Shown: positions 9,869 to 59,481, numbered from the stretch's first letter. The stretch: DNA of 64,000 nucleotides from a bacterium (GCA_030693425.1 JAUYAM010000004.1:23163-87162); one strand, 5' to 3'. A program made the numbers and translations. Notes: a model not told the origin generated them from the sequence alone.

Positions 9869-9871
9869 CAC

Positions 9872-20237: not shown

Positions 20238-20654
20238 TTGAATTTCCAACGGGGCATGATAGCAAAAACAAAGACAAAGAAAAGCAAAAAGGATCTGCCG
20301 CAAAGCCGGATCAATTTGTGGTTTTTTATAGTTATTTTTCTGCTGATCGGGATATTTTTGGCATCTTCCGGCTGGCAAATGGCCCAGAGGCGCAAAGAAC
20401 TGTTTTTAAGAACCGACGCTCTGGAAAAAGAGATCGCCGTCTTGGAGAAAAGGAATCTGGAGCTGAAAGCCGGCACGGATTCTTCTTCCCAAGAAAGTTT
20501 TCTGGAGAAAAAAGCCAGAGAGAACTTCCAGCTAAAAAAACCTGGAGAAAAAGTGGTGATTGTGGTCGTTTCGCCTTCGGCCAGCCCGGAGCCGGCAGCC
20601 CGGGAGCAATCAGGGTTTTGGTGGCAAAAAATCTTAGATAAATTAGGCTTATAG
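20238..20654 (+). CDS. Septum formation initiator family protein (FtsB/DivIC-like)
   Basis: Basic N-terminus, single TM helix, coiled coil (LEKEIAVLEKRNLELK) and EKKARENFQLKKPGEKVV. Confidence 0.65.
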   Translation: MNFQRGMIAKTKTKKSKKDLPQSRINLWFFIVIFLLIGIFLASSGWQMAQRRKELFLRTDALEKEIAVLEKRNLELKAGTDSSSQESFLEKKARENFQLKKPGEKVVIVVVSPSASPEPAAREQSGFWWQKILDKLGL

Positions 20655-20655
20655 T

Positions 20656-20689
20656 CCTCACTCTACTGCTACGTAGCACTAGAGTGAGG
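20656..20689. terminator. 34-nt near-perfect palindrome/terminator hairpin (core ACTGCTACGTAGCA shared with 59448-59481)
   Basis: CCTCACTCTA-c-TGCTACGTAGCA-c-TAGAGTGAGG followed by TTT. Confidence 0.6.
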
Positions 20690-34426: not shown

Positions 34427-35560
34427 TTATCCGATACGTTTTCTCAACAATTGGATCAGTCTGGAATAAACTCTCAGGTTATGGATGGTGGCCAGGCGCC
34501 AGGCAAGGGAATCCCCAATTTTAAAAAGGTGGTTTAGGTAAGCCCGGGAATAGTTTTGGCAAAGTCGGCAGTCGCAGAATTTGTCGACCGGCTTTTGATC
34601 GTTCCGGTGTTTGGCTTTGTCGGGATAGAAAAAACGAAATAACTTTCGGGAATCGGTTTTCAAAACATTGGTTCGGTCGGGGTTTTTGGTCCAGACATAA
34701 AGCCGTTTGTGGCGAGCGTCTCTTGTTGGCAAAACGCAGTCAAAAATATGGTAGCCTATTTTTACACAATCAATAATATCCCAAGGATAACCCACGCCTA
34801 AAGCGAATTTCGGCTTATCTTTGGGCAGTTGCGAAACAATGAATTTGCCGATATTAATATTTAGTCCGCCTTTCTTCTTGGCGGTCCAGCCTCCCCAGCC
34901 GTAGCCGTCAAATTCGATTTTGACCAATTCCCTGGCGCATTCGGCCCGGAGGTTTTTATCTGATCCGCCCTGGACCACGGCAAAAAGCAACGGTCGAGTC
35001 CTTTGGAACCGAGACGGAGGAGCCCCGGTCTCCTCCGTTTTCAGTTGTTTTTGAAATTCCTCTTTACATCTTTTAGCCCAGATGATCGTCCGACGGACGC
35101 TCGTTTCATAATCTTTTCGGGTGGCTTTTTTGCTCGGGCAGTCGTCAAGGCAGATAATGATGTCTGCGCCAAGGTCCATTTGGGTTTGGATTGATTTTTC
35201 CGGGGTGAAAAGCCATTTTTTATTCCTGCCCAAAGAGTCCTTGTAGAAAATCACGCCCTTGTCGCTTATTTTTCCGAATCTCGGGTCTTTATAGACCAAG
35301 GATAATAATTGCCAGCCGCCAGAATCGGTAATGGCAAAGCCGGGCCAGTTCATATATCGTTTGATGCCTTGGAATTTTCTGACAACATCAATTCCGGGCT
35401 GGGATGCCAAGTGGTAAGGATTCAAAATCAGACCTTCAATGCCGGCTTCTCGCAAGTCGCAGCTGTCCAGCGATCGGACCACGGCCCTAGTGGCGTCGGG
35501 GCAGTAGATCGGGAAACGCATTAGTTTCCCCTTTATTTTTAGTTGTCTTAAATATTTCAT
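34427..35560 (-). CDS. tgt: tRNA-guanine transglycosylase (queuine tRNA-ribosyltransferase family), divergent
   Basis: Contains NPYHL, TDSGGWQ, LDDC, VVQGG and GVGYP..DCV..GYHIFDCVLPTRDARH, plus the zinc motif CDCRLCQNYSRAYLNHL. Confidence 0.85.
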   Translation of the reverse strand: MKYLRQLKIKGKLMRFPIYCPDATRAVVRSLDSCDLREAGIEGLILNPYHLASQPGIDVVRKFQGIKRYMNWPGFAITDSGGWQLLSLVYKDPRFGKISDKGVIFYKDSLGRNKKWLFTPEKSIQTQMDLGADIIICLDDCPSKKATRKDYETSVRRTIIWAKRCKEEFQKQLKTEETGAPPSRFQRTRPLLFAVVQGGSDKNLRAECARELVKIEFDGYGWGGWTAKKKGGLNINIGKFIVSQLPKDKPKFALGVGYPWDIIDCVKIGYHIFDCVLPTRDARHKRLYVWTKNPDRTNVLKTDSRKLFRFFYPDKAKHRNDQKPVDKFCDCRLCQNYSRAYLNHLFKIGDSLAWRLATIHNLRVYSRLIQLLRKRIG

Positions 35561-35704
35561 CTCTGATTAAATCTAGCAGTTTCAGTCTATTTTTGCTAGG
35601 ATGAAGGAGGTTGCTCATAACTTCTTTTGAATAAGGATCTTTTACAGCTAGTATCAAAATGATATTGTAATTATAGATATAATAATACTTAAAAAGCCAA
35701 AATT

Positions 35705-38700
35705 GTGCCCAAACTTAACCTTAAGTCATTCGTTATAGCTTTTGTTTTCTCCGCCTTGATAGTTTCCCTGCTTGTTTTATCGATTACCGAGGTTCAATTG
35801 ATGGGTAGGCGGTCTTTGACTAAAGAAGCGGCAATTTCTAATCAAATATTAAACTTTGTATTTAAGGATAGCGGCGTCAATCTTTTGGCTGAGGGAGGAA
35901 ACGGCATTAGAGTTTTAACCGGATTAGATACGACCGGCGCCAAGATAGATTCGTCTCAGCTCTCTACCGTTACTGGCAAGACAAGCAAAAAAACGGGCGG
36001 AGATTATGTTCAAGGTGAAATTTTGGTGAAATTTAAAGCCAAGGCAGCCGTTTTAAAACCAAGCTCTCAAGCTTTGTCCCGCGGAGTAGGTTTCGACAAA
36101 GCCCCGGTTTCTTTTGAAGATATTGATCGGCAGGATTCTCCAAAAGTGCTGGTTAAGTTGCACGAACGTTTTCCGATAAAAACCATTGACAAGGTTTTTA
36201 AGAAAAACTTCTCTCCAAAAATAAAGAAGGTTTCAAGCATTGATATTTCCAGGAACTACAGGATTATTTTCAGCAAAGACGTTTCGGTCATAGCAGTTTT
36301 GCAGTTTTTAAACCAGAGTTCCGAGATTGAATACGCCGAACCCAATTTTATTTTAGAAGCCACGGCGATCAACGATCCTTATTATCTTGACCAGCAGCCG
36401 CCGGCACCAGAGCGAGCATTGCCGGCAGGCTCTGGCGGTTGGAACCCCTCTTATGATTACCAATGGGGATTGAAAAAAATCAACATTGAACCGGCCTGGG
36501 ATAAGGACTCCGGCAGTCAAAATGTTGTCGTCGCGGTTATTGATACCGGCGTTGATTATAATCACCCGGAGCTGGAAGGTCGCGTCATCAAGGGTTACGA
36601 TTTCGTCAATGATGATAATAATCCTATTGATGACAATGGTCACGGAACGCACGTCGCCGGCATCATCGCCGCCGTTAAAAACAACCAAATTGGTATGGCC
36701 GGCGTCAGCAATAGCCAAATTTTGGCAATAAAGGGCTTGAATTACAACGGCGCTGGTACCATAAATAACTTAGCCAGGGCGGTTCGTTTTGCCGGGGATA
36801 ACGGCGCAAAAGTAATCAATGCTAGTTGGGGAGGGATAGGATCAAGCCAAACATTAAAAGAGGCGGTGGATTACGTTAATTCCCTGGGTGTGATTTTTGT
36901 GGCGGCGGCTGGCAATAACGGTGCTGATTCCCGCCGCTTCATTCCAGCTAGCTACCGGAATTCTCTGTCGGTAGGTTCTTCTGACGTCGCTGACCAAACG
37001 AGCGACTTTTCCAATATCATTGGCATTGATTTTATTGCTCCCGGAGGAAACTCTAGATCATCTAACCCTGGAGGAGATGGTTTCAGGAATATTTTGTCCT
37101 TGAGAGCCGGCGGGACAGGAAGTTCTAGTCTAACGATAGACAATGATTATTTGCGTCAGGCAGGCACCTCAATGGCCGCTCCTTTCGTTACTGGGAGCGT
37201 TGCCCTGCTTTTGGGACAGAATAGTTCTTTGACCTCGGAAGAGATTCGGAGCATTTTGCGTACCTCGGCTTTTAAGCCAGACGAAAAAATCTGGACCAAA
37301 GAAAGAGGCTATGGCCGTCTCGATATTGGCAGGGCAATGTCGACGGGTGGTAAGTTTAACGTTGCCAGAATTCAAAAACCGGATAATTTTGTCGTTGACG
37401 GCGATCAAGCGCAGATTACCTTTATTGCTTTCGGTAATTATTTTTCCCACTGGGTTTTAGAATTAGGCATTGGTTTGGAACCGACAATCTGGACGACTCT
37501 TGAAGAAGATTCTACTCCGAAACAGACTCCTGAAACACTCGTTGTTAACATCAGTTCTCTGCCTTACGGCGATAATACTCTTCGTTTGAGAGTTTTGAGC
37601 AATAGTCCAGAAGTGCCGGAGGCCGAAGATCGCTTGGTGGTTTCTAAAACGCCGCCAGTTAAATGGAGTTTTTTTGACCCGGCTGGGAGTTTTGATTTTA
37701 TGCCGACCGTGGCTGATATAAATGCCGATGGCCGAAAAGAAGTTATTATCCCCTCAGTGATTGGTAGGGTTTATATTCTAAAATCTGATGGCAGCTTAAA
37801 AAGCACGATTAGTCTGGGCGACGAAAAGCTCGCTTACCTGGCTAGTTCTCCGATAGTCGCCGACATAATCCCCAATCTTCCGGGTAAAGAGATTTTAATA
37901 ATGACGGAGAATAAGACCTACTCTCAAAATAAAAAAATAAGGATATTTTCTTCTTCCGGTTCAGAATATATTGGCGACAATTGGCCTTTTAGTTTTACCT
38001 ATACTGGATTTTGGACGAGAATGGCGCCCTTCAGAGTAGAAGACATTGACGGCAATGGCAGCTATGAAATTCTAATGGCGGCTGACAAAGTTTATGTTTT
38101 AGACCGCTTTGGTTCTCCTTTGAATTCTGGCTGGCCGAAGACCTTGGCCGGCGATTTCGAAAATTCAGTTTATGCCGGTAAGTTTATTAATCCGAAAAGC
38201 AATCAATTGCAAGTCTTGGCCATTAATCATCAGGGTCAGGTCTTTGTTCTCGACTATCAAGGCAACCAAATTACCACCTTTAATATCCCTGCTTTTAACC
38301 AGTCAACTCCGTCAGCAACCATTAGTGATTTGGACGGCGACGGAATTCAGGAATTGATTACTCAATACCAGTCTTCTGCCGGCATGCCCACCGAGACTAA
38401 TACAGACATCGCTGTTTACAAGCCAGACGGAACCTTGCTCTGGAAGAAAACAATCGGGATAGGTGGCTTTAACGTTAACTTTCCCGTTCCAATTGTTTCC
38501 GATTTGAACAACGATGGTCGAAAAGATATCATTACCAGTGATGCGGACGGAATCTGGATCCTTGACCGTGACGGAAACCAATTAACCGGCTGGCCATTTT
38601 ATAACCAGAGCAATGTTTTGAATTTCGTGACTGGCGACGCTGACGGCGATACCCTACCGGAAATTTACTTTTCCCAATCTTATCCTCCTTCGTTGGGGGT

Positions 38701-39307
38701 CCTAGACAAGGGTTTGATTAAATTCTATTTTCCTTTTTCATCATCTTTCTTATTTGACGCGCCGAGCGTGGGTGACATCGATGGCGACAACCATCTGGAG
38801 TTGATAATCAACGCTCCTTTTGGCGCGCCCCTGCGCGTTTATGACCTTGGAGAGACGAAGAATTACCGTAAATTTAATCTTCAGTGGCCGACCTATCAAT
38901 ATAACGAGAGGCGTTTGGCTGCTGACGGAATCTGCCTTAAATTAGACTGCGACTTAAACGGAGACGGACAGGTTAACTTTGCCGATTATTCTTTCATGCA
39001 AAGCTGTTATGGAAAAGAGTCGCCTCTCGGCGCTTGCCGCAGAACAGATGTTGTTTGCGATGGCTCCGTGACCTTACTCGACTTCTCGATGTTGGCCAAT
39101 AAATGCCCTTCGATATTTTGCCCTGAGCTTTCTTGCGATCTAAATGGCGACGGTAAGGCAAATAAGACTGATGGATCCTTCTTTAGAAGCTGTTTTGGCA
39201 AGCAAGCGACAGGAAGCTGCAAGAAAGCAGACGTGGTTTGCGACAACTATATTACTCTCCGCGATTTCTCGTTGTTGGCACAGAAATGCATAGTGATATT
39301 CCGTTAG
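35705..39307 (+). CDS. Large secreted/surface protein: signal-anchor, subtilisin (S8) protease, FG-GAP/VCBS-like repeat region, two C-terminal Cys-containing dockerin-like repeats
   Basis: 1200 aa. The S8 triad contexts are AVIDTGVD, HGTHVAGI and GTSMAAPFV. There are at least 6 Ca-binding-type DxDxDG repeats (DINADGRKEVI, DIDGNGSYEIL, DLDGDGIQELI, DLNNDGRKDII ...). Tandem CDLNGDG...LLDFS repeats lie at 38948-39106 and 39134-39292. Confidence 0.8.
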   Translation: MPKLNLKSFVIAFVFSALIVSLLVLSITEVQLMGRRSLTKEAAISNQILNFVFKDSGVNLLAEGGNGIRVLTGLDTTGAKIDSSQLSTVTGKTSKKTGGDYVQGEILVKFKAKAAVLKPSSQALSRGVGFDKAPVSFEDIDRQDSPKVLVKLHERFPIKTIDKVFKKNFSPKIKKVSSIDISRNYRIIFSKDVSVIAVLQFLNQSSEIEYAEPNFILEATAINDPYYLDQQPPAPERALPAGSGGWNPSYDYQWGLKKINIEPAWDKDSGSQNVVVAVIDTGVDYNHPELEGRVIKGYDFVNDDNNPIDDNGHGTHVAGIIAAVKNNQIGMAGVSNSQILAIKGLNYNGAGTINNLARAVRFAGDNGAKVINASWGGIGSSQTLKEAVDYVNSLGVIFVAAAGNNGADSRRFIPASYRNSLSVGSSDVADQTSDFSNIIGIDFIAPGGNSRSSNPGGDGFRNILSLRAGGTGSSSLTIDNDYLRQAGTSMAAPFVTGSVALLLGQNSSLTSEEIRSILRTSAFKPDEKIWTKERGYGRLDIGRAMSTGGKFNVARIQKPDNFVVDGDQAQITFIAFGNYFSHWVLELGIGLEPTIWTTLEEDSTPKQTPETLVVNISSLPYGDNTLRLRVLSNSPEVPEAEDRLVVSKTPPVKWSFFDPAGSFDFMPTVADINADGRKEVIIPSVIGRVYILKSDGSLKSTISLGDEKLAYLASSPIVADIIPNLPGKEILIMTENKTYSQNKKIRIFSSSGSEYIGDNWPFSFTYTGFWTRMAPFRVEDIDGNGSYEILMAADKVYVLDRFGSPLNSGWPKTLAGDFENSVYAGKFINPKSNQLQVLAINHQGQVFVLDYQGNQITTFNIPAFNQSTPSATISDLDGDGIQELITQYQSSAGMPTETNTDIAVYKPDGTLLWKKTIGIGGFNVNFPVPIVSDLNNDGRKDIITSDADGIWILDRDGNQLTGWPFYNQSNVLNFVTGDADGDTLPEIYFSQSYPPSLGVLDKGLIKFYFPFSSSFLFDAPSVGDIDGDNHLELIINAPFGAPLRVYDLGETKNYRKFNLQWPTYQYNERRLAADGICLKLDCDLNGDGQVNFADYSFMQSCYGKESPLGACRRTDVVCDGSVTLLDFSMLANKCPSIFCPELSCDLNGDGKANKTDGSFFRSCFGKQATGSCKKADVVCDNYITLRDFSLLAQKCIVIFR

Positions 39308-39321
39308 GGGAAAGCCGTTAA

Positions 39322-39489
39322 TTAGAACCAAGACGTTAAATAGTAGGGGTTGAAAATCGGGTTCTCGATACCCGCCTCGATCAAGTCCTGGCTGTCCAGA
39401 CTCCGGATGACGGCCCTAGTGGCGTCGGGGCAGTAAATCGGAAAACGCATGGTTTTTCCTTTAACCTTGATTTTTTTGAGATAATTCAT
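39322..39489 (-). pseudogene. Truncated duplicate of the tgt 5' end (55 codons)
   Basis: MNYLKKIKVKGKTMRFPIYCPDATRAVIRSLDSQDLIEAGIENPIFNPYYL.. aligns with the Tgt N-terminus MKYLRQLKIKGKLMRFPIYCPDATRAVVRSLDSCDLREAGIEGLILNPYHL... A 26-nt run is identical between the copies (39410-39435 = 35481-35506). Confidence 0.85.
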
Positions 39490-39549
39490 AACATTTCTAA
39501 TCTAACAATTTTAATCCATTTTTGCTAGGATGACAGAAGTAAATTATCA

Positions 39550-39621
39550 GCCGGAGTAACTCAGTGGTAGAGTAGCTGTTTCGTAAACAGCAAGTCGAGA
39601 GTTCGAATCTCTCCTCCGGCT
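39550..39621 (+). tRNA. tRNA-Thr (anticodon CGT)
   Basis: Hand-folded cloverleaf. The acceptor stem pairs GCCGGAG with CTCCGGC, the anticodon loop is TTCGTAA and the T-loop is TTCGAAT. Confidence 0.9.
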
Positions 39622-39682
39622 CTGGGGGAGTAAGACCTTTTCCATCCACAGTTTGTTTCAGTTCTGAAAGGAGGCACAACAC

Positions 39683-39919
39683 ATGTTGAAAAAAGTGACA
39701 GCGGGGCAAGAGGTGACGGTTGACGGACTAATTTACCGTTTTGGCAGGGGTAGCGCCATGACTTTTAACCAGCTGATAGCAGCTGCAGAAAGAGTCCGTG
39801 GCTGTGTCGATTGCGGCGATTTCGTGCCGGAAGAAGCGCAGATCAATATTCTGCGCGTTGGCGGATATTGCGTTGATTACGTTGACATCGACATCCGGAA
39901 GCTTTATTCTGCTCTCTAA
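39683..39919 (+). CDS. Hypothetical 78-aa protein with CxxC motif (GC-rich orphan)
   Basis: A strong RBS (AAAGGAGG) lies 8 nt upstream of the ATG, and a strong terminator follows. I recognise no family. Confidence 0.55.
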   Translation: MLKKVTAGQEVTVDGLIYRFGRGSAMTFNQLIAAAERVRGCVDCGDFVPEEAQINILRVGGYCVDYVDIDIRKLYSAL

Positions 39920-39949
39920 TTCTCCTCTGCCTTAGCCCCCATCGCCTCG

Positions 39950-39986
39950 AACCGCGTTCTTCAAAAGGAACGCGGTTTTATTTTTT
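39950..39986 (+). terminator. Rho-independent terminator
   Basis: AACCGCGTTC-(loop)-GGAACGCGGTT followed by TTATTTTTT. Confidence 0.8.
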
Positions 39987-40044
39987 GAGGATCGGTCAAG
40001 CAACTCCTGTTCAGAGTTGCGGATTCCTGATAAAATATTAGATT

Positions 40045-41256
40045 ATGGCAGGAAGAATCTTGAATATTTCTAAAAGAGCAAAGGAAACCCAGTTTTCGCC
40101 GATCAGGAAATTCGTGCCGCTTTTGGAAGAGGTTAAAAAGAGAGGGATTGAGGTTTTTGAGCTTCATATCGGCCAGCCGGATTTGCCGACTCCCAAGGAA
40201 ATTTTAAGAGAAATCAGGTCTTTTGACGGCAAGATTTTAGCTTATACGCCTTCGTCCGGGATACTTGAGACAAGGGTTGCCTGGCAGAAGTATTATAAGA
40301 GCGCAGGGATTAGCTTTGATGTTTCTGAAATTATCGTCACCGTCGGCGGCAGCGAAGCGATTTTATTTGCTTTCGCCGCAATTTGCAGTCCGGGGGAGGA
40401 AATTATTGTTTTTGAACCTTTTTATGCCAACTACAACGGCTATGCTTCGATGGCGGGAATCAGGCTGGCGCCTTTGACGACTTTTGCCGAAAACGGATTT
40501 CATCTGCCCAGTAAAAAGGCGATTGAAGAAAAGATTAATAAAAAGACGCGGGGCATATTGATTTGCAATCCCAATAATCCCACAGGAACTGTTTACGGGA
40601 AAAAGGAATTGAGGATGATTGCCGACATTGCCAAAGAACACAACCTTTTCATTTTGTCAGATGAAACTTACCGCGAGTTTGTTTATGACGGCAAAATTCA
40701 TTGTTCGATGATGGTTTTTGCAGATATCCGCGACAGAGTGATCTTGCTGGACAGCCTATCCAAAAGATTCAATGCCTGCGGCTTAAGAATCGGCTGTTTG
40801 GCTTCAAAGAATAAAGAAGTGATCGAGGGAGCGACAAAGTTTGCCCAGGCTCGTCTTTCTGCTCCCATGATTGAGCAGTTGGCGGCGGTTCCTCTTTTAG
40901 AGCATTGCCGGGAATATACTAAAAAAGTTGCCGCAGAATATCAGAAAAGAAGGAATACGGTTTTTAAAGAGATTGAAAAGATCCCCAATATTCTCTGCTC
41001 AAGGCAAAAAGGGGCTTTCTATGCGATTCTAAAACTGTCGATCAAAGACACCGACCATTTTGCCGAATGGCTTTTGAAAGAGTTCTCTTTTAAGGGAAAA
41101 ACCCTGCTGGTGGCGCCGGGTTCTGGTTTTTATGCCACGAAAAATCTTGGCAAAGACGAGATAAGAATTGCCTTTGTCCTTTCTTCCTCAAAGCTCAAAC
41201 AGGCCATCAGGATTCTTAAAAAAGGATTGGAAAGATATTTATCCATAATGGTTTAA
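40045..41256 (+). CDS. Pyridoxal phosphate-dependent aminotransferase (aspartate aminotransferase-like, class I)
   Basis: 403 aa. Contains GQPDLPTP, NPNNPTG and SLSKRFNACGLRIG. Confidence 0.85.
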   Translation: MAGRILNISKRAKETQFSPIRKFVPLLEEVKKRGIEVFELHIGQPDLPTPKEILREIRSFDGKILAYTPSSGILETRVAWQKYYKSAGISFDVSEIIVTVGGSEAILFAFAAICSPGEEIIVFEPFYANYNGYASMAGIRLAPLTTFAENGFHLPSKKAIEEKINKKTRGILICNPNNPTGTVYGKKELRMIADIAKEHNLFILSDETYREFVYDGKIHCSMMVFADIRDRVILLDSLSKRFNACGLRIGCLASKNKEVIEGATKFAQARLSAPMIEQLAAVPLLEHCREYTKKVAAEYQKRRNTVFKEIEKIPNILCSRQKGAFYAILKLSIKDTDHFAEWLLKEFSFKGKTLLVAPGSGFYATKNLGKDEIRIAFVLSSSKLKQAIRILKKGLERYLSIMV

Positions 41257-41362
41257 AGTTAACCAAGAGGCACGTCTCAGTTTTAAGCTTCAATGCTATC
41301 TAAGGCGTTTTGCTATTTTGACAAGACCTCTTTTAATGCTAAAAAGACCCTGGAGGTGGATT

Positions 41363-41455
41363 ATGGCTATATTGTCAGATACTCTCGTGGAGGGCAATGG
41401 GTGCCCCCTCTGCGAAGGCGATTCGAAGGGCACTCTTTGTTTGGCCAGGCACTGA
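41363..41455 (+). CDS. 30-aa CxxC peptide (MAILSDTLVEGNGCPLCEGDSKGTLCLARH) ending at TGA; in-frame extension to 41566 if the TGA is decoded
   Basis: The RBS GGAGGTG lies 5 nt upstream of the ATG. A candidate promoter is TTGACA (41318-41323), a 16-nt spacer, then TGcTAAAAA. A long terminator hairpin lies at 41583-41630. Confidence 0.4.
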   Translation: MAILSDTLVEGNGCPLCEGDSKGTLCLARH

Positions 41456-41709
41456 AGCGACTCTTACCTGGAGTGCAGTTTGCACCCCAACGAGCATCGC
41501 CGACCGGCCAATGAGGCCGAACAGGCATTACTCAAACAGAGATCGGAGGCGACTTGTTCTTTTTGAAATTTGAACCTTTCGTGAAATACGGCCTTATTGC
41601 CAAAGATTTTGGCAGAGGCCGTATTTTATTTGATAATAAAACCCCAAAAGCTGTCTGGATGAGTCAACTTGATCGTCAGAGAAACGATCTTTTGATATAT
41701 TGATATAAT

Positions 41710-42150
41710 ATGGATCATTTAGCGATAATGAAAAGATCTTGGGGATTGCTTCCAAAGATTCTGAGAAAGGAAAAAACAATAGAATCCCGTTGGTACAAAA
41801 ACAGATATTCTCCCTGGGGCAAGATTAAGAAAGAGGATACAGTCTATTTTAAGGATTCTGGCAAGCCAGTTACCGCAAGGGCGAAGGTTTCTGACGTTTT
41901 TCAGTATTCAGATTTAACACCAACCAAAGTCAAAGAAATTCTTTTGAAGTATGGCTCAAAAGACGGCCTCGGTTTAGACGAGATCGATAAGTATTATAAG
42001 ATGTTTAAGAATAAAAATTATTGTCTGTTGATTTTTCTTAAAGACCCCAGGCGGGTAGAGCCGTTTGAAGTTAACAAGGACGGTTTTGGAGCTATGTCCA
42101 GTTGGATTGTTATTGACAATATCGACAAACTGAAGAAACCTTGGTTATAA
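41710..42150 (+). CDS. ASCH domain protein
   Basis: 146 aa. It has the EKTIESRW motif and a PUA-like beta pattern. Confidence 0.6.
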   Translation: MDHLAIMKRSWGLLPKILRKEKTIESRWYKNRYSPWGKIKKEDTVYFKDSGKPVTARAKVSDVFQYSDLTPTKVKEILLKYGSKDGLGLDEIDKYYKMFKNKNYCLLIFLKDPRRVEPFEVNKDGFGAMSSWIVIDNIDKLKKPWL

Positions 42151-42157
42151 TAGAATA

Positions 42158-43513
42158 ATGATCCATTTGTCTTTCCCTTTAAAACTGCTTCTGGCTATTT
42201 TTCTCGGAGCCATTATCGGCATTGAGAGAGAGCCGGTCAGGAAAAAAGAGTTTAGCCAGGAAAAGGTTTCCGCGGGCGGACTCGGGGGCTTGAGGACTTT
42301 TTCTTTGATTTCCCTTTTCGGAGCCATCTCCGGTTATTTGAGCATCAGCGGCAACATCACTCTTTTCTTGATCACCGCTATTGCCTTTTTTGCCCTTATT
42401 CTAGCCTATTATGTTGTCGGCGGCGTTTTGACCAAGTCCGTCGGCCTGACTACCGAGCTGGCCGCTCTTTATTCTTTTCTGATCGGTTTTTTCGTGGTCA
42501 CCGAGATTTTTCCTGTCCAGTTAGTTATCGCCCTGACCATTGTTTTGACCCTGATTTTGTCTTTGAAGGAAAAGACCCAGCGCCTGACCTTGGGAATCAA
42601 TCAAGAGGAAATCAACGGGTTTTTAAGTTTTGCCATCATCGCTCTGGTGGTTCTTCCTTTTCTTCCAAATCAGGCCTACTACCTGACAGACATTCCGGCG
42701 GTAAAAACCATTCTCAGCGCTTATCACGTTCAACTGGGATTATTGGAGACGCTGGAGATTGTCAATCCGTTCAGGCTCTGGTTCATCGTCGCCTTGATCA
42801 CCGGCATTGACGTTTTCGGGTACCTGCTCGGCAAGCTTGCCGGCCCAAAAAGAGGAAAGCTCGTCACCAGCCTGATCGGCGGGTTCATTTCTTCCACCTC
42901 GACGACAATCTCTCTTGCCCAGCAAAGCAAGAAAGAAAGCCGGACGGATCAATTGGTGGCTCTGGCCGTCTTTGCCAACCTAATGAGCTTTCTCCAGATT
43001 TTCATTCTGGTCGCTCCCTTGAACAGCGGCTGGCTGGTATATATCACCTCTACGCTTTTTGTCATTGCCATTTCTGCTTTTATTGTCGGGCTTTTCTATT
43101 ATTCATTTGCCAGAAAGCAGCCCAATGAGAGCGTGCCGGAGGCGGAAGGACAGCTGGCGGGGGTAAAACTATTTTCTTTCAAACCGGCTTTAAGATTCGC
43201 CCTGATATTGGTTTTAGTGAAGATTGTTACCAAAGCATCTTTGGCTTTTTTCGGCCAAGCCGGCTTTCTTTTGAGCTCGATTATCGCTTCGTTTACGGGC
43301 ATAGACGCAATTGTCATTAACCTGGCCGAGTCGGCCGGAGCCAGTATCACTTACGAAATGGCCCTGCTCACTCTGGTGGCTGTTAATGCCAGTAATCTTC
43401 TCAGCAAGACATTCTATTCTTTTATTCAGGGAAGCCGGAAATTTACTTTAAAGCTGCTTTTGGCGGTCCTGATTGTCATTTCCGTAAGCTTTGTATTCTT
43501 TTTCTTGGTTTAA
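42158..43513 (+). CDS. MgtC/SapB family membrane protein with DUF4010-like C-terminal domain
   Basis: 451 aa. It has the LLLAIFLGAIIGIEREPVRK N-terminus and is polytopic. Confidence 0.7.
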   Translation: MIHLSFPLKLLLAIFLGAIIGIEREPVRKKEFSQEKVSAGGLGGLRTFSLISLFGAISGYLSISGNITLFLITAIAFFALILAYYVVGGVLTKSVGLTTELAALYSFLIGFFVVTEIFPVQLVIALTIVLTLILSLKEKTQRLTLGINQEEINGFLSFAIIALVVLPFLPNQAYYLTDIPAVKTILSAYHVQLGLLETLEIVNPFRLWFIVALITGIDVFGYLLGKLAGPKRGKLVTSLIGGFISSTSTTISLAQQSKKESRTDQLVALAVFANLMSFLQIFILVAPLNSGWLVYITSTLFVIAISAFIVGLFYYSFARKQPNESVPEAEGQLAGVKLFSFKPALRFALILVLVKIVTKASLAFFGQAGFLLSSIIASFTGIDAIVINLAESAGASITYEMALLTLVAVNASNLLSKTFYSFIQGSRKFTLKLLLAVLIVISVSFVFFFLV

Positions 43514-43701
43514 GTCAGGGGCAAAAGGTTTTTAGCTTCGTTGACGACAGTCGTCAATGGAGTCGTCATTTAGTTCAGAGAAGGGGAAAAATTGTAGATT
43601 TTTGGCGAAAAGGTGGAGAATAGTTCTAAGACGGATATTAAGCTAAAAATTGAAAAGACTGACGTTCAATCGTCAGCCTTTTCTTTGTGTCCGATCGCCT
43701 C

Positions 43702-43950
43702 CTATTCGTTGCAATCCTTCTCCGGGCAGTGGGGCCCGGGGAAGATGTCTACCAGTCCGCCCAGATCCATGATGAAGTAATTGGGGGTTACGAGTCGTTT
43801 CCCGTGAATGGTACAGTAAGCAGCAGATTTTCCACGGTTGTTTTGCCGCTGGCAGTACCACTTATCGCAAACCGTTTTCCACGCCGCAGTTTTTTCGCCA
43901 CAGTACTTACAATGGCAGGGGAGTAGGACGGCAACTAGCGAGTATGACAT
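43702..43950 (-). CDS. Hypothetical 82-aa cysteine-rich protein (8 Cys; CHCKYC, HCPEKDC)
   Basis: The RBS AAGGAGG lies 5 nt upstream of ATG 43950. It has its own terminator (43655-43680, minus sense GCTGACG..CGTCAGTC TTT). The region is GC-rich. Confidence 0.55.
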   Translation of the reverse strand: MSYSLVAVLLPCHCKYCGEKTAAWKTVCDKWYCQRQNNRGKSAAYCTIHGKRLVTPNYFIMDLGGLVDIFPGPHCPEKDCNE

Positions 43951-44057
43951 AACAGCCTCCTTTCGTCCCAATTTAAGCACGGTTCTATATTTATTTCAAG
44001 TGGTTGTTTTTTTTGAGTTTTTTGGTAGAATTAAGCCAGAAAACCTAATTTTTGCTT

Positions 44058-45168
44058 GTGGCCAAGATTTTGAAAGACAGAATCGAAGATTTGGAGGTTA
44101 AATACCGCCAGCTGGCGGACTGTCTTTGACTTAGTTAAAAACAGGGAGGAGATTAAAGAGCTAGAAGAAATTTCTCTTAAACCGGATTTCTGGAAAGACG
44201 GAGATCGGGCAAAGGAAATCCTCCAGAGACTCTCGGCCTTAAAACAAGAGGTCGCCGCCTTGGAGGGGCTGGAGGCTGAAATCAAAGAAGCTGTTGAGAT
44301 GGACAAGGCTTTCGGTCAGGACCAGGCATTGGTTCTGGAGCTGGAGAAAAAAGTCTCCAGCCTTGAACAAAAAATTAAGAGAAAAGAATTAGAGGTTTTT
44401 CTTTCTGGGAAATACGACAGCCATGACGCCATCCTCTCAATTTTTGCCGGAGCCGGAGGCCAGGACAGCCAGGATTGGGCGACCATGCTTTTGCGCATCT
44501 ATCAGCGCTATTGCGAGTCTAGGTTTTGGCAGACAAGGATTTTAGAACAGTCGTTTGGCGAAGCCGGAGGGCCGGAAGGCAGAATTGGAACCAAGTCAGC
44601 GACCCTTGAGATAAAAGGAAGGAACGCCTACGGCTTGCTGAAAGGGGAAACGGGGATCCACCGCTTGGTAAGGATTTCTCCTTTTTCCTCGCAGTCTTTG
44701 CGGCACACTTCTTTTGTAAGCGTTGAGGTGACTCCGGCAATAGAGGACGAAAAACAGTCCGAAATTAGGCCGGAGGATTTGAAAATAGAGTTTTACCGGG
44801 CCTCGGGTCCCGGCGGCCAGAACGTCAATAAAAGGGAGACTTCGGTCAGGATTACCCACCTGCCAACAGGTCTTGTCGCCGCCTGCCAGGTTGAAAGATC
44901 GCAAGGAGACAATAGGAAAAAAGCGATGGCAATGCTGGCTTCAAAATTGCTCAAACTTGAAGAGGATAAGATTGAAGAAAAGAAGGCAGAATTTAGAGGC
45001 GAGAAAAAATCGGCCAGCTGGGGAAACCAGATCCGTTCTTACGTCCTTCATCCCTATAAACTAGTCAAAGACTTGAGAACCGAGGTTGAAACCAGCGACA
45101 CCGAAGGAGTCTTAGACGGAAAGCTGGATCAATTTATTGAAGCTGAAATCAAGTTGAGAAAATGGTAA
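44058..45168 (+). CDS. prfB: Peptide chain release factor 2, with programmed +1 frameshift at CTT TGA C (44124-44130); join(44058..44126,44128..45168)
   Basis: Frame 0 reads (GTG)AKILKDRIEDLEVKYRQLADCL-TGA. The +1 frame continues DLVKNREEIKELEEISLKPDFWKD... through SGPGGQNVNK (GGQ motif). The start codon is tentative. Confidence 0.9.
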
Positions 45169-45887
45169 AATTCCAAGGAGTAACCAAAACCTATCCGGCC
45201 AACAATCTGCATTCAAAGCCGACAGAAGCCTTAAAAGACATCTCTTTTGAAATCAAGGAAAAAGAGTTTGTCCTGATAGCCGGGAGATCAGGGGCTGGCA
45301 AAACTACACTAGTCAAGCTTTTGATCGGCGAGGAAAGGCCGACTTCGGGCAGAATTTTTTTCAGCTTTAAGGACGACCGGGACATAATCAGAAATCTTGA
45401 AGTCAACAAGGTTAAAAAAAAGGATCTGCCGGGAGTAAGGCGGCATATCGGAGTCGTTTTCCAGGACTACAAGCTTTTGCCCAAAAAAACCGTTTTTGAA
45501 AACGTTGCCTATGCCTTGGAAGTGGTCGGCGCCCAGGATTCCCAGATAAAAAACGAGGTGCCTAAAGCCCTAAAAATAGTCGGTTTGGAAGACAGGGCCG
45601 GACATTTCCCGTTTGAGCTTTCCGGCGGAGAAAAGCAAAGAGTGGCTATCGCCAGAGCCCTGATTCATCGGCCAGATTTAATTATTGCCGACGAGCCGAC
45701 CGGCAACCTTGACCCTTATCATACCTGGGATATTATCAAATTATTGCTCAAGATTAATGAGCTTGGGGAGACGGTGATTTTGGCCACTCACGACCAGGAT
45801 ATCGTTAATAATCTTGAAAAGAGAGTCATTAGTTTGGAAAGAGGCAAGCTGATTAAAGATGACAAAGTCGGAAAATATATCATTTAA
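45162..45887 (+). CDS. ftsE: Cell division ATP-binding protein FtsE
   Basis: Contains GRSGAGKTT, LSGGEKQRVAIARAL and IIADEPTGNLD. It lies upstream of ftsX. Confidence 0.9.
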   Translation: MVKFQGVTKTYPANNLHSKPTEALKDISFEIKEKEFVLIAGRSGAGKTTLVKLLIGEERPTSGRIFFSFKDDRDIIRNLEVNKVKKKDLPGVRRHIGVVFQDYKLLPKKTVFENVAYALEVVGAQDSQIKNEVPKALKIVGLEDRAGHFPFELSGGEKQRVAIARALIHRPDLIIADEPTGNLDPYHTWDIIKLLLKINELGETVILATHDQDIVNNLEKRVISLERGKLIKDDKVGKYII

Positions 45888-45889
45888 AC

Positions 45890-46798
45890 ATGTTGATTTC
45901 TTTTAAGAGAGTGTTAATAAACGGCTGGCTGAGTTTTAAAAGGAGCCAGGGCTTGTCGACAATTACGATCTTTGTCATGTTTTTGACGATTTCCATACTG
46001 ACGTCGATTTTCATTTTCAAGGGAGTGACGGATTTCCTGTTGATGTCTTTGGAGAAAAAGATGGATATTTCCGTTTATTTTAAAGAAGGAGTGCCTGAAG
46101 AAGAGATTTTCAAGACCAAGGATTTGCTGCTGGAAATCCAGGGAGTGAGGAAGGTAACCTATGTTTCTCCGGCAGAGGCTCTGGAAAAATTCAAAGAAAG
46201 GCACCAGTACGACGACATTATCACCCAGGCGCTGGAAGAAGTCGGCGACAATCCCTTTTTAGCTTCTTTGAACATCAGCGCCTCGGAAGCCTTGGATTAC
46301 GAGAAAGTCAGTCAGTTCCTGGGCGAGAGTCGTTTTGAGAGCTTGGTCAACAAAATCGATTTTTACCAGAGAAAGCCGGTGATCGAAAAGTTTTATTCCC
46401 TGAAAGCTAGTTTTGAGAGAACGGGTTTGATATTAGCCCTCATTCTGGCTTTGGTTGCTTTTTCGATTACTTTTGTTACCATTCGCCTTGCGATTTACAA
46501 TTCTTCGGAAGAAATCGGCATTATGAGGCTGGTCGGAGCTTCCAATTGGTTCATCAGCGGGCAGTTTGTCGTTCAAGGGATTATCTGCGGAATTTTGGCC
46601 GTTACGGCGACATTGATAGTCTTCCCGGCTTTGAGCTATTTTTTGGCGCCAAAAATCTTTAGTTTGACCGGCGGCTTTAACCTGTTTAACTATTTCTTAG
46701 AGAATTTCTTTTTAATTTTTGGTTTTCAGGTTTTGACCGGCATGGTTTTAGGAACAGTTTCCAGTCTGGTTGCCGTCAGAAAGTACTTGGAGAAGTAG
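45890..46798 (+). CDS. ftsX: Cell division permease-like protein FtsX
   Basis: 302 aa with an N-terminal TM helix, an extracellular domain and 3 C-terminal TM helices (IGIMRLVGASNWFI). Confidence 0.85.
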   Translation: MLISFKRVLINGWLSFKRSQGLSTITIFVMFLTISILTSIFIFKGVTDFLLMSLEKKMDISVYFKEGVPEEEIFKTKDLLLEIQGVRKVTYVSPAEALEKFKERHQYDDIITQALEEVGDNPFLASLNISASEALDYEKVSQFLGESRFESLVNKIDFYQRKPVIEKFYSLKASFERTGLILALILALVAFSITFVTIRLAIYNSSEEIGIMRLVGASNWFISGQFVVQGIICGILAVTATLIVFPALSYFLAPKIFSLTGGFNLFNYFLENFFLIFGFQVLTGMVLGTVSSLVAVRKYLEK

Positions 46799-46806
46799 CA
46801 TATTTT

Positions 46807-46877
46807 TGCGAGGTCATCTAACGGTCGGATGCGACTCTCTGAAAGTCGTCATCTTGGTTCGAATCCAAGCCTCGCAG
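46807..46877 (+). tRNA. tRNA-Gln (anticodon CTG)
   Basis: Hand-folded cloverleaf. It has a U1-A72 pair and a G73 discriminator, as in bacterial tRNA-Gln. The anticodon loop is CTCTGAA and the T-loop is TTCGAAT. Confidence 0.85.
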
Positions 46878-46930
46878 TAAAAAAGAATAAAATCTCAGTG
46901 ACCAAAGAGATTAAAAATTATTATCGATAT

Positions 46931-47584
46931 ATGTTTAAAAAAATAAAAGATTGCAAAGAGAGTATAAAAATGGGATGGAGTGTAAAAAAAGAGAACGGAG
47001 AAGAATTGATTTTAGAGAATCCCGACTTCGGAAGGGTTGAGATAGTCGCGAATACCATAGGAAACTATGATCAGCTAGCTTATATTCAACCAACTGGCAG
47101 TGTAGTAGTTGTTTTAATTGATGAAAAAAGAGAAAAAATTTATCTTCATACTGAAGAAAGACCAGCAGCTCCGAAAGAGAATTGTCCAGAAATAAAGAAG
47201 GGTAATTTATATATTCCCTTCGATCATTTAGGAAGAGGTAGTATAGAAACTATTAGGGGATTTAGCGAGGGAACTTGGCAAAATACGGCAATAACGGAGA
47301 TAAAAGATGAGGCAGGCTTAGAAATAAGGGAGAATGATTTAGAGCAATTAGGTATAATTAACGCAAATACAGCATTTTTTTGTTTTAATGTCGTTGCTGT
47401 TCTAGCAAAAGGTGATTCTAAGATTAAGTTTAGTCCTCAAAGTGAAGGTGATAAAAAAAAGATTAAAAACAGAAAATGGTATACAAAAAAAGAAGTAAAA
47501 GAAATAATAGCACAGGGAAAGATATTTTGCGGCGTTACATTGGCTACACTAAATCTTTATTTTCAAAAGAGTGAAGTAAACTAA
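46931..47584 (+). CDS. NUDIX-like hydrolase (very AT-rich gene)
   Basis: A degenerate NUDIX box is present (GFSEGTWQNTAITEIKDEAGLEI). The start is set at ATG 46931 because the track ORF begins inside the tRNA. Confidence 0.5.
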   Translation: MFKKIKDCKESIKMGWSVKKENGEELILENPDFGRVEIVANTIGNYDQLAYIQPTGSVVVVLIDEKREKIYLHTEERPAAPKENCPEIKKGNLYIPFDHLGRGSIETIRGFSEGTWQNTAITEIKDEAGLEIRENDLEQLGIINANTAFFCFNVVAVLAKGDSKIKFSPQSEGDKKKIKNRKWYTKKEVKEIIAQGKIFCGVTLATLNLYFQKSEVN

Positions 47585-47680
47585 AATGCCCAGATGTATT
47601 CTCTAGTGATAGAAATAGTATCTCAAAATACTAATTTGTGCTTATAAAACAGGTTCTAACGTCGTCCATTACCCGCAACT

Positions 47681-48118
47681 ATGATTTATATTGCTGCAGA
47701 CAAACACGGTTTTAAGGCCATAAAGTTCGTTGAAGAATACCTCAAGTCACGCAATATTCCTTATGATAACCTGGGAATAAAAACCGAAACGGAAGACATG
47801 AGACTTGAAGATATGATTCCTAAAGTTGTGGCCAAAATTCGTGAGAATAGAGAAAATAAAGGCATACTTTCTTGTGGCGCCGGGGTTGGCGTAGAGATAG
47901 GAACGAATAGGTTTAGCGGCATTCGAGCCTGTTTGGCAACGAACACTAAGGTGGCGGAGTGGTCAAGAGTTTACGACAACTGTAATGTTGTGTGCCTGGT
48001 AGGATGGGAATCAGAGAAAAGCACCGTTCATAGCATTTTAGATGCGTGGTTCGGCGCAGAATATGATGGAGATGCAGATCGTCTAAAAATGATGGAAGTA
48101 TTTGATAGCTGGCATTGA
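47681..48118 (+). CDS. rpiB: Ribose-5-phosphate isomerase B (RpiB/LacA/LacB family)
   Basis: 145 aa. Contains MIYIAADKHGF and ILSCGAGVGVEIGTNRFSGIRA. Confidence 0.75.
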   Translation: MIYIAADKHGFKAIKFVEEYLKSRNIPYDNLGIKTETEDMRLEDMIPKVVAKIRENRENKGILSCGAGVGVEIGTNRFSGIRACLATNTKVAEWSRVYDNCNVVCLVGWESEKSTVHSILDAWFGAEYDGDADRLKMMEVFDSWH

Positions 48119-48206
48119 GCGGTCAGAGAGATGAATATTTTCAATTAAAGAAATTCCTCAATTTAGGGTGACAGTCACCTATCAGAATAACTAACCAAAC
48201 AATATC

Positions 48207-49844
48207 ATGACTACAATATCTAAAAATCTATTCTCTTTTGCTAAAATATCCCACGGCTTCGTATTATTTTCTTTATTCTCGATTCTTTTATTTTCAGTTT
48301 TTGTTGTAGGAACGGCAGAGGCTCAAAATGCTACAGGAATTATTGTTGAAATTACAACCGATAAAAGTCAATATACCGTTGGAGAAGATATTTTTATCAC
48401 CGTAAAAGCTGTCAATACATCTAACGTATCGCAAACACTCTCCTTTTCTTCGTCATTGCAAGCCGATTATGCCATTGGTGGAAAATATCGCTGGTCATCA
48501 AATAAGGCCTTTCTTCAATTTTTGACTTCAGTAGTAATTCCCGCGGGCTCTTCGCGACAATGGGAATTTACCCATAAACCTTCTGATTTTAAACTGGACA
48601 GTGGTACTCATACAATTTCTGGAGAAGTTGTCGGACACGGCAGCGCTCAAACTACCATTACTGTTGTCAGTGAAACTCAACCCCCTTATTTTGAAAGTTT
48701 TGAAAGCGGTTTAGGCGGTTGGCAAACAGATCATGAGATTCATTGCGAACAAGAGATCCATCCTTGTTTATTTGAGTGGAGTATTGAGCGTTCAACTGAG
48801 CAGGCGCAACATGGCAATTATTCTCTTGAAAGTTTTCTCAACGGCATTAACGACGATGGTACAATTTGGATGGAAAAGACATTCCCGGTGCCTCAAAATT
48901 CGACTGTAACTATTGACCTTTCTTTTCAACTCTGGAGCGAGGCAGCAACCCCCGTTACCCAATGGCCCGTAGTTGCATATATAGGCACCGCCGATCCAGA
49001 GTTAGAGTCTGATTTTACTATCGTTGGGTACACAAATACGGTTGCTGGTTGGCAAGCATATAGCCATAGCCGGAATATTAACACAGGTTCATCAAGCCGC
49101 ATATGGGTAGCGTTTGGATTTGGGGCTACCTGGGAAGTATCCAGAACTTATTTTATGGATTCAGTGACGGTTACTGTCCCTCCCGCCCCTCCAGTTATTG
49201 GAGAAAAATTTGTAATTGGAATGTATCCAGTTGAGAAAAGAAGTGATCGTATGTTTATTGTGTCCGTCACTGACCAAGCCACAATTCAGCAAGCTCGGAA
49301 TTGTTACGCTTATGGCCAACAAAATCCTGGTGACCCACGATGCGGCAGACACATTAGCGGCCAGATAGCTTCTGGGAATGGCGGTTTTAACACAAATTGG
49401 AGCTGGCACCTCATACCTGAAACAGTAATAATGCCCACGGCATCTATAGAGATCTGCGATGGCAGCCCAAACGACGTAGAAAGAGATGGTGTTGATTTTG
49501 ATGCAGGCGTTTTCTGTCCTTGGATCAGCTATATTCTTGCCCCAGGAGGTCAATATCCCCAAATATCTCCCTCAACCGCATTCACGAGGAATCTAACCTT
49601 AGGTCTGCGCGGCAACGATGTAAAAGAGTTGCAGAGAGTATTAGCAAGTGATCCATTAATTTATCCCGAAGGTTTTATTACCGGCTATTTTGGGCCCCTC
49701 ACCAGAAAAGCTGTTATCAAATTTCAAGAAAAATATGCCAGCGAAATCCTTACCCCCATAAAGATTACCAAAGGAACAGGGTTTGTAGGACCAATGACTA
49801 TGAGGAAATTGAGAGAAATTAGACAAACAACTTCAGCAAATTAG
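48207..49844 (+). CDS. Secreted protein with C-terminal peptidoglycan-binding (PG_binding_1-like) domain
   Basis: The signal/TM sequence is FVLFSLFSILLFSVFVVGTAEA. The C-terminal part (GNDVKELQRVLA..GYFGPLTRKAVIKFQEKY) resembles a peptidoglycan-binding domain. Confidence 0.6.
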   Translation: MTTISKNLFSFAKISHGFVLFSLFSILLFSVFVVGTAEAQNATGIIVEITTDKSQYTVGEDIFITVKAVNTSNVSQTLSFSSSLQADYAIGGKYRWSSNKAFLQFLTSVVIPAGSSRQWEFTHKPSDFKLDSGTHTISGEVVGHGSAQTTITVVSETQPPYFESFESGLGGWQTDHEIHCEQEIHPCLFEWSIERSTEQAQHGNYSLESFLNGINDDGTIWMEKTFPVPQNSTVTIDLSFQLWSEAATPVTQWPVVAYIGTADPELESDFTIVGYTNTVAGWQAYSHSRNINTGSSSRIWVAFGFGATWEVSRTYFMDSVTVTVPPAPPVIGEKFVIGMYPVEKRSDRMFIVSVTDQATIQQARNCYAYGQQNPGDPRCGRHISGQIASGNGGFNTNWSWHLIPETVIMPTASIEICDGSPNDVERDGVDFDAGVFCPWISYILAPGGQYPQISPSTAFTRNLTLGLRGNDVKELQRVLASDPLIYPEGFITGYFGPLTRKAVIKFQEKYASEILTPIKITKGTGFVGPMTMRKLREIRQTTSAN

Positions 49845-58838: not shown

Positions 58839-59444
58839 ATGATCCCGATTCTAATCATTGCCATATCGTTTCTGCTAATAATTCCTTTCTACAAAACAAA
58901 GTCGTATTTATCTGCTTGGGGCGGAATGATGTTTGCAATGGCAATTCCTCTAGTTTATCTACGGATAAAGACATTAGAGATTTACCCTTCAAGATTTTTC
59001 GTTAAAGAGACACTCTTTGTTTCAGGAGTTATCGTTGGGATAGCAACATTTCTAATAGTTCTAGCTTTTGTCTTTATCAAGAAAAACGATATAGCTCGGT
59101 TAAAATCAGCATATTTCCGGAAACTGCTAGCTTTTTATTTCTTGTGGGGATTTTTGCAACAATTGTTCTTCCAGTTCGTCTTTTTTGAAACTGTTTATTT
59201 TGTTTTTAAAGGAAACATATTTCTTTCCTTGTCATCGTCGGCAATCTTTCTTGGCTTATTTCATTTGGGGCGGACCAAAAAATTCTTTTTACCCAGTCTA
59301 TTAATGGGATTTCTTTTTTCGGGAATTTACCTGCTCTACGGCAATCTTATCTGGTTGGCCCTGTCCCATGCTTTGCTGGGGACTTTTTTGTACGTTTTAT
59401 TTGTCAAGAATAACCAGTTATCGCGCAGGTTAAACTTGACTTAA
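58839..59444 (+). CDS. Polytopic membrane protein, possibly CPBP-family intramembrane protease
   Basis: 201 aa. There are FxxxH-like (FLGLFHLG) and HxxxN-like (SHALLGTF) segments, but the glutamate motif is not clear. Confidence 0.4.
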   Translation: MIPILIIAISFLLIIPFYKTKSYLSAWGGMMFAMAIPLVYLRIKTLEIYPSRFFVKETLFVSGVIVGIATFLIVLAFVFIKKNDIARLKSAYFRKLLAFYFLWGFLQQLFFQFVFFETVYFVFKGNIFLSLSSSAIFLGLFHLGRTKKFFLPSLLMGFLFSGIYLLYGNLIWLALSHALLGTFLYVLFVKNNQLSRRLNLT

Positions 59445-59447
59445 AAT

Positions 59448-59481
59448 TCTCAGTATACTGCTACGTAGCAGTATACTGAGA
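59448..59481. repeat. Perfect 34-nt palindrome TCTCAGTATACTGCTAC|GTAGCAGTATACTGAGA
   Basis: Seen directly in the sequence. It shares the 14-nt centre ACTGCTACGTAGCA with the hairpin at 20656-20689. Confidence 0.8.

Follow-up and report, generated by a model that had tools for sequence, protein, structure and literature searches.

The stretch of DNA analyzed here (64,000 nt; GCA_030693425.1 JAUYAM010000004.1:23163-87162), hereafter called the window, belongs to a metagenome-assembled genome of the Patescibacteria (Candidate Phyla Radiation, CPR), and all coordinates are counted from its start. It contains a large protease gene that is inserted between the tRNA-guanine transglycosylase gene, tgt, and the gene for tRNA-Thr(CGU), and that is bracketed by two diverged copies of the tgt 5' end. 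The intact tgt (34427-35560, minus strand) encodes 377 aa, residues 6-376 of which match the Pfam TGT family (E 1.5e-90), while the tRNA-Thr gene (39550-39622, plus strand), called by ARAGORN and matched by the Rfam tRNA model with 71 bits, is the ancestral divergent neighbor of tgt. Between these two genes lie direct repeat copy A (35409-35611), which comprises tgt codons 1-51 and 51 nt of upstream DNA, the gene for an S8 protease of 1200 aa (35705-39307, plus strand) and direct repeat copy B (39338-39540), which comprises relic codons and the equivalent upstream DNA. The relic, tgt', is a 55-codon open reading frame (ORF; 39322-39489, minus strand).

The protease gene is the sole ORF with a recognizable protein family between copies A and B, in agreement with the original prediction that only one giant gene lies there. 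Its product carries Peptidase_S8 (E 5e-53, 180.6 bits versus a cut-off of 21.8), FG-GAP and Dockerin_1 domains in Pfam, and is laid out as an N-terminal hydrophobic anchor, a fervidolysin-like propeptide, the S8 domain, FG-GAP beta-propeller repeats and two dockerin-like modules. The catalytic Asp, His and Ser motifs are intact (DTGV at residue 280, HGTHV at 313 and GTSMA at 487), and the cargo protein is predicted to be a secreted or surface subtilase. A candidate promoter of the protease gene, picked out by pattern match alone in a consensus scan, is located in insert-specific DNA at 35641-35668 on the plus strand (TTTACA, a 16-nt spacer and a TG-extended TATTGT). ORF and Pfam scans of the 3.9-kb unit revealed no recombinase, transposase or replication gene, and no inverted repeats bracketing the unit were detected. 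Likewise, the search for phages or plasmids carrying the unit returned only generic matches to the S8 core.

Copies A and B align without gaps over 203 nt with 71% identity and a constant offset of 3929 nt (E 5.5e-23 in a self-blastn of the window), and in a screen of the whole 64 kb for repeats of at least 45 nt they formed the sole long direct repeat of this size. Both edges of the homology are sharp, and copy B stops 10 nt short of tRNA-Thr(cgt). The original prediction had rested on four further details, all of which were recovered in the alignment: a 26-nt run that is identical in both copies (35481-35506 and 39410-39435), corresponding ATG start codons on the minus strand (35560 and 39489), an upstream block of 16 nt, ATTTTTGCTAGGATGA, common to both copies (35589-35604 and 39518-39533), and a second copy that encodes only 55 codons beside tRNA-Thr. 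The 26-nt run sits in the most conserved codons, which encode YCPDATRAV, and the 16-nt block forms a portion of an element conserved throughout the clade, which is described below. Insertion of a transposon or insertion sequence was rejected, since neither a transposase nor bracketing inverted repeats are present and a diverged repeat of 203 nt is unlike a short, identical target-site duplication.

The locus is not an assembly artefact, because a Logan contig from SRR13727538, which was made by a different assembler, matches the window at 34834-49307 with 0 mismatches and spans both repeat copies, which are separated by 3.7 kb of unique sequence. The protease encoded on this contig is identical to the window protein. 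The Logan assembly of this sample is interrupted in the tgt body at window positions 34822-34833, where one contig (L061) stops at 34821 and the next (L006) begins at 34834; this break could reflect strain variation or a drop in coverage. When empty-site or variant contigs of the same population were sought by exact-protein look-ups, only the same sample was returned.

The ancestral state of the locus was judged on those related loci that include upstream sequence (loci and contigs used for comparison are labeled L001, L002 and so on). In the closest relatives the gene order is YbaK-HhH-RarA-(DAGK)-FmrO-tgt followed by the divergent tRNA-Thr(cgt)-prfB-ftsE-ftsX-tRNA-Gln(ctg), and in at least 15 loci of the clade tRNA-Thr(cgt) is found 53-165 nt upstream of the tgt start in divergent orientation. 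The expectation that tgt would directly adjoin tRNA-Thr in relatives thus held in every related locus with upstream sequence, and among these at least 15 loci the 3.9-kb insert with the protease gene is present in the window genome only. Synteny in the window is intact on both flanks, with the genes FmrO-DAGK-RarA-HhH-YbaK downstream of tgt being common to the relatives, and the distance of 60 nt between the relic start codon and tRNA-Thr in copy B corresponds to the ancestral geometry. The original prediction had named beforehand two observations that would speak against it, a repeat-free order tgt-protease-tRNA in relatives and an assembly artefact, and neither occurred.

The differences between copies A and B are distributed over the first, second and third codon positions as 14/9/28, which corresponds to a dN of 0.21, a saturated dS of about 1.9 and a dN/dS of about 0.1. 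In addition, their nucleotide identity of 71% falls inside the range observed between lineages of the clade (65-78%), and the amino acid sequence of copy B is 74% identical to that of copy A and up to 77% identical to those of other lineages. The codon pattern, the saturated dS and the lineage-level divergence together argue that copy B is foreign or allelic rather than a decayed local duplicate. Codons 2-42 of copy B show a dN of 0.165 against orthologs (ortholog median 0.208) and codons 43-51 one of 0.327, which exceeds the 95th percentile of 0.183, so that codons 1-42 are typical of a functional allele of the clade and codons 43-55 are damaged beside the truncation junction. As only codons 43-51 show an excess of non-synonymous change, the damage is local to the junction and the truncation recent relative to the divergence. 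To judge from these patterns, copy B is the 5' end of another tgt allele that came from a related lineage and had formerly been complete and functional, in accordance with the original prediction of a tgt 5' fragment from a related organism. Nothing of tgt past codon 55 remains in copy B, which amounts to a loss of recipient DNA only if copy B is the recipient copy. The search for its donor found nothing above 77% amino acid identity in protein-database hits, GTDB genomes (2 relevant loci) and JGI metagenomes.

A tandem duplication of the tgt 5' region in situ followed by divergence would account for two copies that are direct and in register, and a duplication-insertion had been put forward as an equivalent alternative to integration. 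Its in-situ form is rejected by the divergence pattern, since neutral, uniform decay would be expected of a truncated local copy, whereas copies A and B show lineage-level divergence and traces of purifying selection that acted on a full-length gene. Together with an assembly artefact, against which stand the independent assembly with its 0 mismatches and the 3.7 kb of unique sequence between the copies, this explanation is effectively refuted, and we consider it highly improbable.

The DNA upstream of tgt contains a block of about 31 nt, CCTAGCAAAAACAGGTTAAAACTGCTAGATT in tgt sense, that is found between tgt and tRNA-Thr in at least 12 lineages (L001 and L017-L028 among them) and that matches the query motif with 0 mismatches in 7 loci (6 distinct contigs), despite a difference of 25-30% in coding DNA. 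In the window it is present twice on the minus strand, at 35570-35600 in copy A (CCTAGCAAAAATAGACTGAAACTGCTAGATT in tgt sense) and at 39499-39529 in copy B. The block holds two divergent boxes that resemble extended -10 elements. The box facing tgt, TGCTAGATT, lies 9 nt before the tgt ATG in copy A, and TGTTAGATT, also facing tgt, lies 9 nt before the relic ATG in copy B; in seven of ten relatives as well as in both window copies TGCTAGATT is placed 8-10 nt before the ATG, suggesting that the tgt mRNA is leaderless or nearly so. On the opposite strand of the block in copy A, TGCTAGGAT points at the protease gene, and the -10-like hexamer TAGGAT contained in it is located 9-18 nt before the +1 position of tRNA-Thr in 6 of 10 relatives and in copy B, where the distance is 18 nt. 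Moreover, where insertions split the tgt/tRNA-Thr pair in other genomes (L001, L003, L018), the block remains with one of the partners.

Conservation and geometry suggest that the block is probably a compact bidirectional promoter, serving a leaderless tgt in one direction and tRNA-Thr in the opposite one. Tgt uses preQ1, and an Rfam search carried to E 10 matched only the tRNA and detected no riboswitch or other RNA family, such as preQ1, in the block. In addition, the variants in L003 and L025 break a potential hairpin with no compensating changes and retain the -10-like box. The possibility that the block is a known RNA or riboswitch was ruled out by this negative search together with the hairpin-breaking variants. 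Following the duplication, tgt and tRNA-Thr each hold one copy of the block. In three relatives (L002, L016, L022), the region upstream of tgt belongs to a second class (TATAACAC...TGTTAAAAT).

Considered together, these observations make it very probable that the locus is the recombination scar of an imported segment, with the second tgt copy originating from another lineage. How the segment entered is a matter on which we are more tentative. The route that we favor, although we would not rate it as high as an even chance, is homology-facilitated illegitimate recombination (HFIR) with linear DNA, as defined in PMC3240628 (summarizing de Vries & Wackernagel 2002; Prudhomme 2002). The ancestral locus would have consisted of tgt on the minus strand, the compact bidirectional promoter and tRNA-Thr on the plus strand, and the donor would have been a related CPR lineage with the protease gene already in place immediately past the promoter. 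A linear fragment containing the donor tgt, its promoter and the protease gene would have been taken up by natural transformation; natural competence is known from Saccharibacteria (PMC10633639). At one end, a homologous crossover would have occurred in or beyond the tgt body, while the opposite end, located 31 nt downstream of the stop codon of the protease gene, would have been joined illegitimately within the resident tgt at about codons 51-53. According to this scheme, the intact tgt 5' end, the promoter block and the protease gene on the side of copy A would be imported, and copy B would be the stranded native tgt start with its promoter, still joined to tRNA-Thr. Today, copy A would serve tgt, with its other face toward the protease gene, and copy B would serve tRNA-Thr along with a dead 55-codon relic.

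The locus would share with HFIR the placement of foreign DNA beside homology, one homologous and invisible junction, a second arbitrary junction, the loss of recipient DNA and the dispensability of mobility genes. It would differ in that the fragment itself carried tgt and the illegitimate junction came to lie within the recipient's own tgt, resulting in a diverged duplication of 203 nt. A microhomology of 3-10 bp is expected at HFIR junctions; the parental sequences that would show it here were not found.

The original prediction had proposed a Campbell-type integration, in which a small circle with the protease gene and a foreign segment of about 203 nt, made up of a tgt 5' end and promoter, would have entered by a single crossover that duplicated this segment. 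Its structural part fits, and Campbell integration explains the final structure as well as HFIR does; the circle and the single crossover are hypothetical. The unit lacks a recombinase, a replicon and conserved ends, and it was not encountered in any phage or plasmid. The sharp ends of the homology are what would be expected if the circle held just that segment, the empty ancestral site is confirmed, and the same geometry recurs at a second protease locus (L007, see below), which counts for the HFIR route as well. A crossover could be marked by the 16-nt block, which contains derived bases found only in copies A and B, or by the 26-nt run, which is the longest among 122 comparably diverged ortholog pairs. 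However, the runners-up in that comparison reach 25, 24 and 23 nt, so that the run, a possible crossover or gene-conversion patch, is only marginally beyond the length expected by chance and only marginally above background. In addition, both halves of copy A resemble P0002 and P0005 and both halves of copy B do not, which means that no hybrid is visible around the proposed crossover core. The Campbell route also requires an illegitimate circularization plus a RecA crossover within 203 nt at 71% identity, while HFIR requires one rare illegitimate step. For this reason, and in view of the mosaic region, the junction-confined damage in copy B, the lack of a hybrid around the core and the natural competence known in the phylum (PMC10633639), we prefer the linear HFIR route and regard Campbell integration as possible, if on the unlikely side. 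A related suggestion, the precise loss of the gene by recombination between the repeats, holds insofar as such an event would leave tgt in frame next to tRNA-Thr, but between copies of 203 nt that are only 71% identical and share a perfect run of no more than 26 bases, it is expected to be very inefficient and rare, and no empty-site variant of this population was found.

Several observations weigh against an imported segment or against the linear route. The base composition of the insert is not distinctive and gives no mark of foreignness. Copies A and B both have two or three derived bases in the block (TCATCC...AAAAAT versus TTATCC...AAAAAC in all other lineages), and they also have the 26-nt run in common. 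Neither feature is predicted by HFIR alone, which suggests a later gene conversion, or a crossover in the repeat as in the Campbell route. No donor or recipient allele with more than 77% amino acid identity to copy B was found with which the illegitimate junction and its microhomology could be compared. Finally, per-gene identities, blastn tracts and sliding windows gave no discrimination between copies A and B as the native one, given that all sampled relatives differ by at least 20-30% in nucleotide sequence, that synonymous sites have reached saturation and that tgt and its flanks are mosaic.

The surroundings of the insert are themselves heterogeneous. The left flank is nearest to L016 (RarA 90%, YbaK 85%, DAGK 83%), whereas the tgt of copy A is merely 71% identical to the L016 tgt, and the right flank is nearest to L018, L020 and L003. 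Compared with L016, the copy A tgt disagrees with the left flank, and its nearest relative changes along the length of the gene; no breakpoint is tied to the insertion. The whole neighborhood therefore has the look of a recombinant, mosaic region. Along its residues, the window tgt tracks L002 at positions 1-150 and 200-275 and L001 at positions 126-225.

The nearest homologues of the protease are 42-51% identical and occur in unrelated contexts. The closest of them, P0122 (51%), is encoded on a contig resembling Woesebacteria/Microgenomates (L007), where a diverged direct repeat is likewise found on both sides of the gene (9832-9951 and 13601-13720; about 98-120 nt, 83% identity, spacing 3769). 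This repeat consists of the last 38 codons of the endonuclease III gene, nth, with differences of 5/7/20 over the three codon positions, and in the relatives of L007 (L058, L059) nth abuts a convergent gene with no protease gene between them. A third apparent nth' copy in L007 (8777-8810) was discarded as a low-complexity match that had no tblastn support. Of the remaining homologous loci, L011 has no flanking repeat, L010 provides 243 nt of downstream sequence only, and for P0125 and P0126 the contig ends are too near the gene for the flanks to be read. No shared sequence or element ends were detected across the flanks of the four homologous protease loci. A background scan of 433 kb yielded 9 diverged repeat pairs, mostly paralogous modules, indicating that the bracketing-repeat pattern is uncommon and not unique.

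Repeat pairs on two other contigs were rejected as insertion scars. The L002 pair (924-1009 and 2137-2222) appears, on hand translation, to represent two copies of a small arginine-rich ORF, and the pairs in L062, another CPR contig, are modules common to neighboring secreted peptidases. In the latter, 105-223/3698-3816 and 3492-3593/5600-5701 are 5'- and 3'-terminal segments common to an S8/FG-GAP protease and adjacent C1 peptidases, and presumably represent signal-peptide and anchor modules; the protease is 34% identical to that of the window, and a sortase gene adjoins this cluster of secreted peptidases.

In L021, an apparent two-gene toxin-antitoxin cassette (RelE/ParE-like plus antitoxin, recognized in a six-frame translation by eye; L021:281-862) lies between the block and tRNA-Thr and shows no duplication of the block. 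As this is exactly the point at which the protease unit is found, the junction of block and tRNA-Thr is a recurrent insertion site, and donors with the structure tgt-promoter-cassette can exist. The L021 case also illustrates that an insertion at this point can be free of duplication, which is the first step of a two-event explanation: the protease gene would have been inserted between block and tRNA-Thr, and a patch of tgt', promoter and tRNA-Thr from a relative would then have restored the promoter. The tight linkage of the block to the tRNA (9-18 nt) in six relatives means that a loss of the promoter could be selected against. Such a course is less parsimonious, however, as it invokes two rare events at one site that no sequence feature requires, and we hold it to be improbable.

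The findings at L007 and L021 also bear on the idea of a cassette that has no integrase of its own and is mobilized in trans, as a cis-mobilizable element (CIME) or satellite is, by a recombinase whose gene lies elsewhere, targeting gene ends and carrying replacement ends. Two proteases with 51% identity from different CPR lineages are both situated between diverged direct repeats of housekeeping-gene ends, and the point between tgt and tRNA-Thr also holds the small cassette of L021. Yet the targets differ (the tgt 5' end versus the nth 3' end), the protease flanks have no common sequence, L011 has no flanking repeat and L010 offers 243 nt downstream only. Moreover, in unrelated contexts similar repeat pairs also turn up at a low background rate, and a recombinase was not seen in the 64-kb window, in a search that was not exhaustive. 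We thus judge mobilization in trans to be improbable, slightly ahead of the two-event course. Scarcely more probable is the general proposition that S8/FG-GAP surface-protease genes travel between CPR lineages as integrase-less single-gene cassettes with a captured housekeeping-gene end as homology arm. If it were true, each insertion would duplicate a regulatory end, so that neither neighbor loses its promoter or terminator, and accessory genes would show recurrent recombination-driven mobility in organisms with few classical mobile elements.

The locus can further be compared with known integrative systems. No recombinase gene characteristic of a site-specific integrative element (phage, integrative and conjugative element (ICE), or SXT type) was found between the repeats, and an empty target site is present in at least 15 related loci. 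Like SXT, the unit is inserted where a conserved housekeeping gene begins, and a replacement 5' end with promoter is present afterward, by means of which the target gene of SXT reportedly stays functional. In contrast, SXT is a self-transmissible element of about 100 kb that encodes a tyrosine recombinase and whose att core is short and near-identical, while the present unit measures 3.9 kb, carries one cargo gene and no recombinase, and is flanked by repeats with 71% identity. CIMEs, described in the literature on the ICEs of Streptococcus thermophilus, are integrase-less islets flanked by att sites that are recognized by a known ICE integrase. They resemble the unit in that cargo is bracketed by direct repeats derived from the target gene and brings no recombination genes of its own, but their att sites are true ones, whereas here no integrase or conserved att is evident and the two protease cases have unrelated targets. 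As with tRNA-adjacent genomic islands, the insertion adjoins a tRNA gene, and the segment concerned differs from one relative to another, with a second variable block extending to prfB and the cassette in L021; in contrast to them, the duplicated part is the 5' end of the neighboring gene with the common promoter, and the tRNA is intact and unduplicated.

The second variable block (39640-44260) is located between tRNA-Thr and prfB and is absent in most relatives, where tRNA-Thr abuts prfB. It encodes a 78-aa ORF, a class I/II aminotransferase (40045-41256), a 146-aa ORF and an MgtC/DUF4010 membrane protein (42158-43513), and the aminotransferase is found at the same place in L020. Elsewhere in the window, a direct repeat of 50 nt with 78% identity (20639-20688 and 59431-59480) contains the palindrome CTCA..CTGCTACGTAGCAG..TGAG. 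This repeat, one copy of which directly precedes tRNA-Gly, may represent a repeated hairpin or an element resembling a terminator.

In summary, the event recorded between tgt and tRNA-Thr is of a known kind but has left an unusually clear and well-preserved trace, found in an under-studied phylum and accompanied by a duplicated promoter and a parallel case. It provides a clean and datable example of an ultra-small CPR genome that gained a large surface-protease gene without visible mobile-element machinery, and it documents an insertion hotspot at the junction of tgt and tRNA-Thr. The conserved block adds a candidate bidirectional promoter in a group whose promoters are essentially uncharacterized. 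Finally, the case of L007 suggests that duplicated gene ends could be a searchable signature of recombination-mediated gene gain across Patescibacteria.

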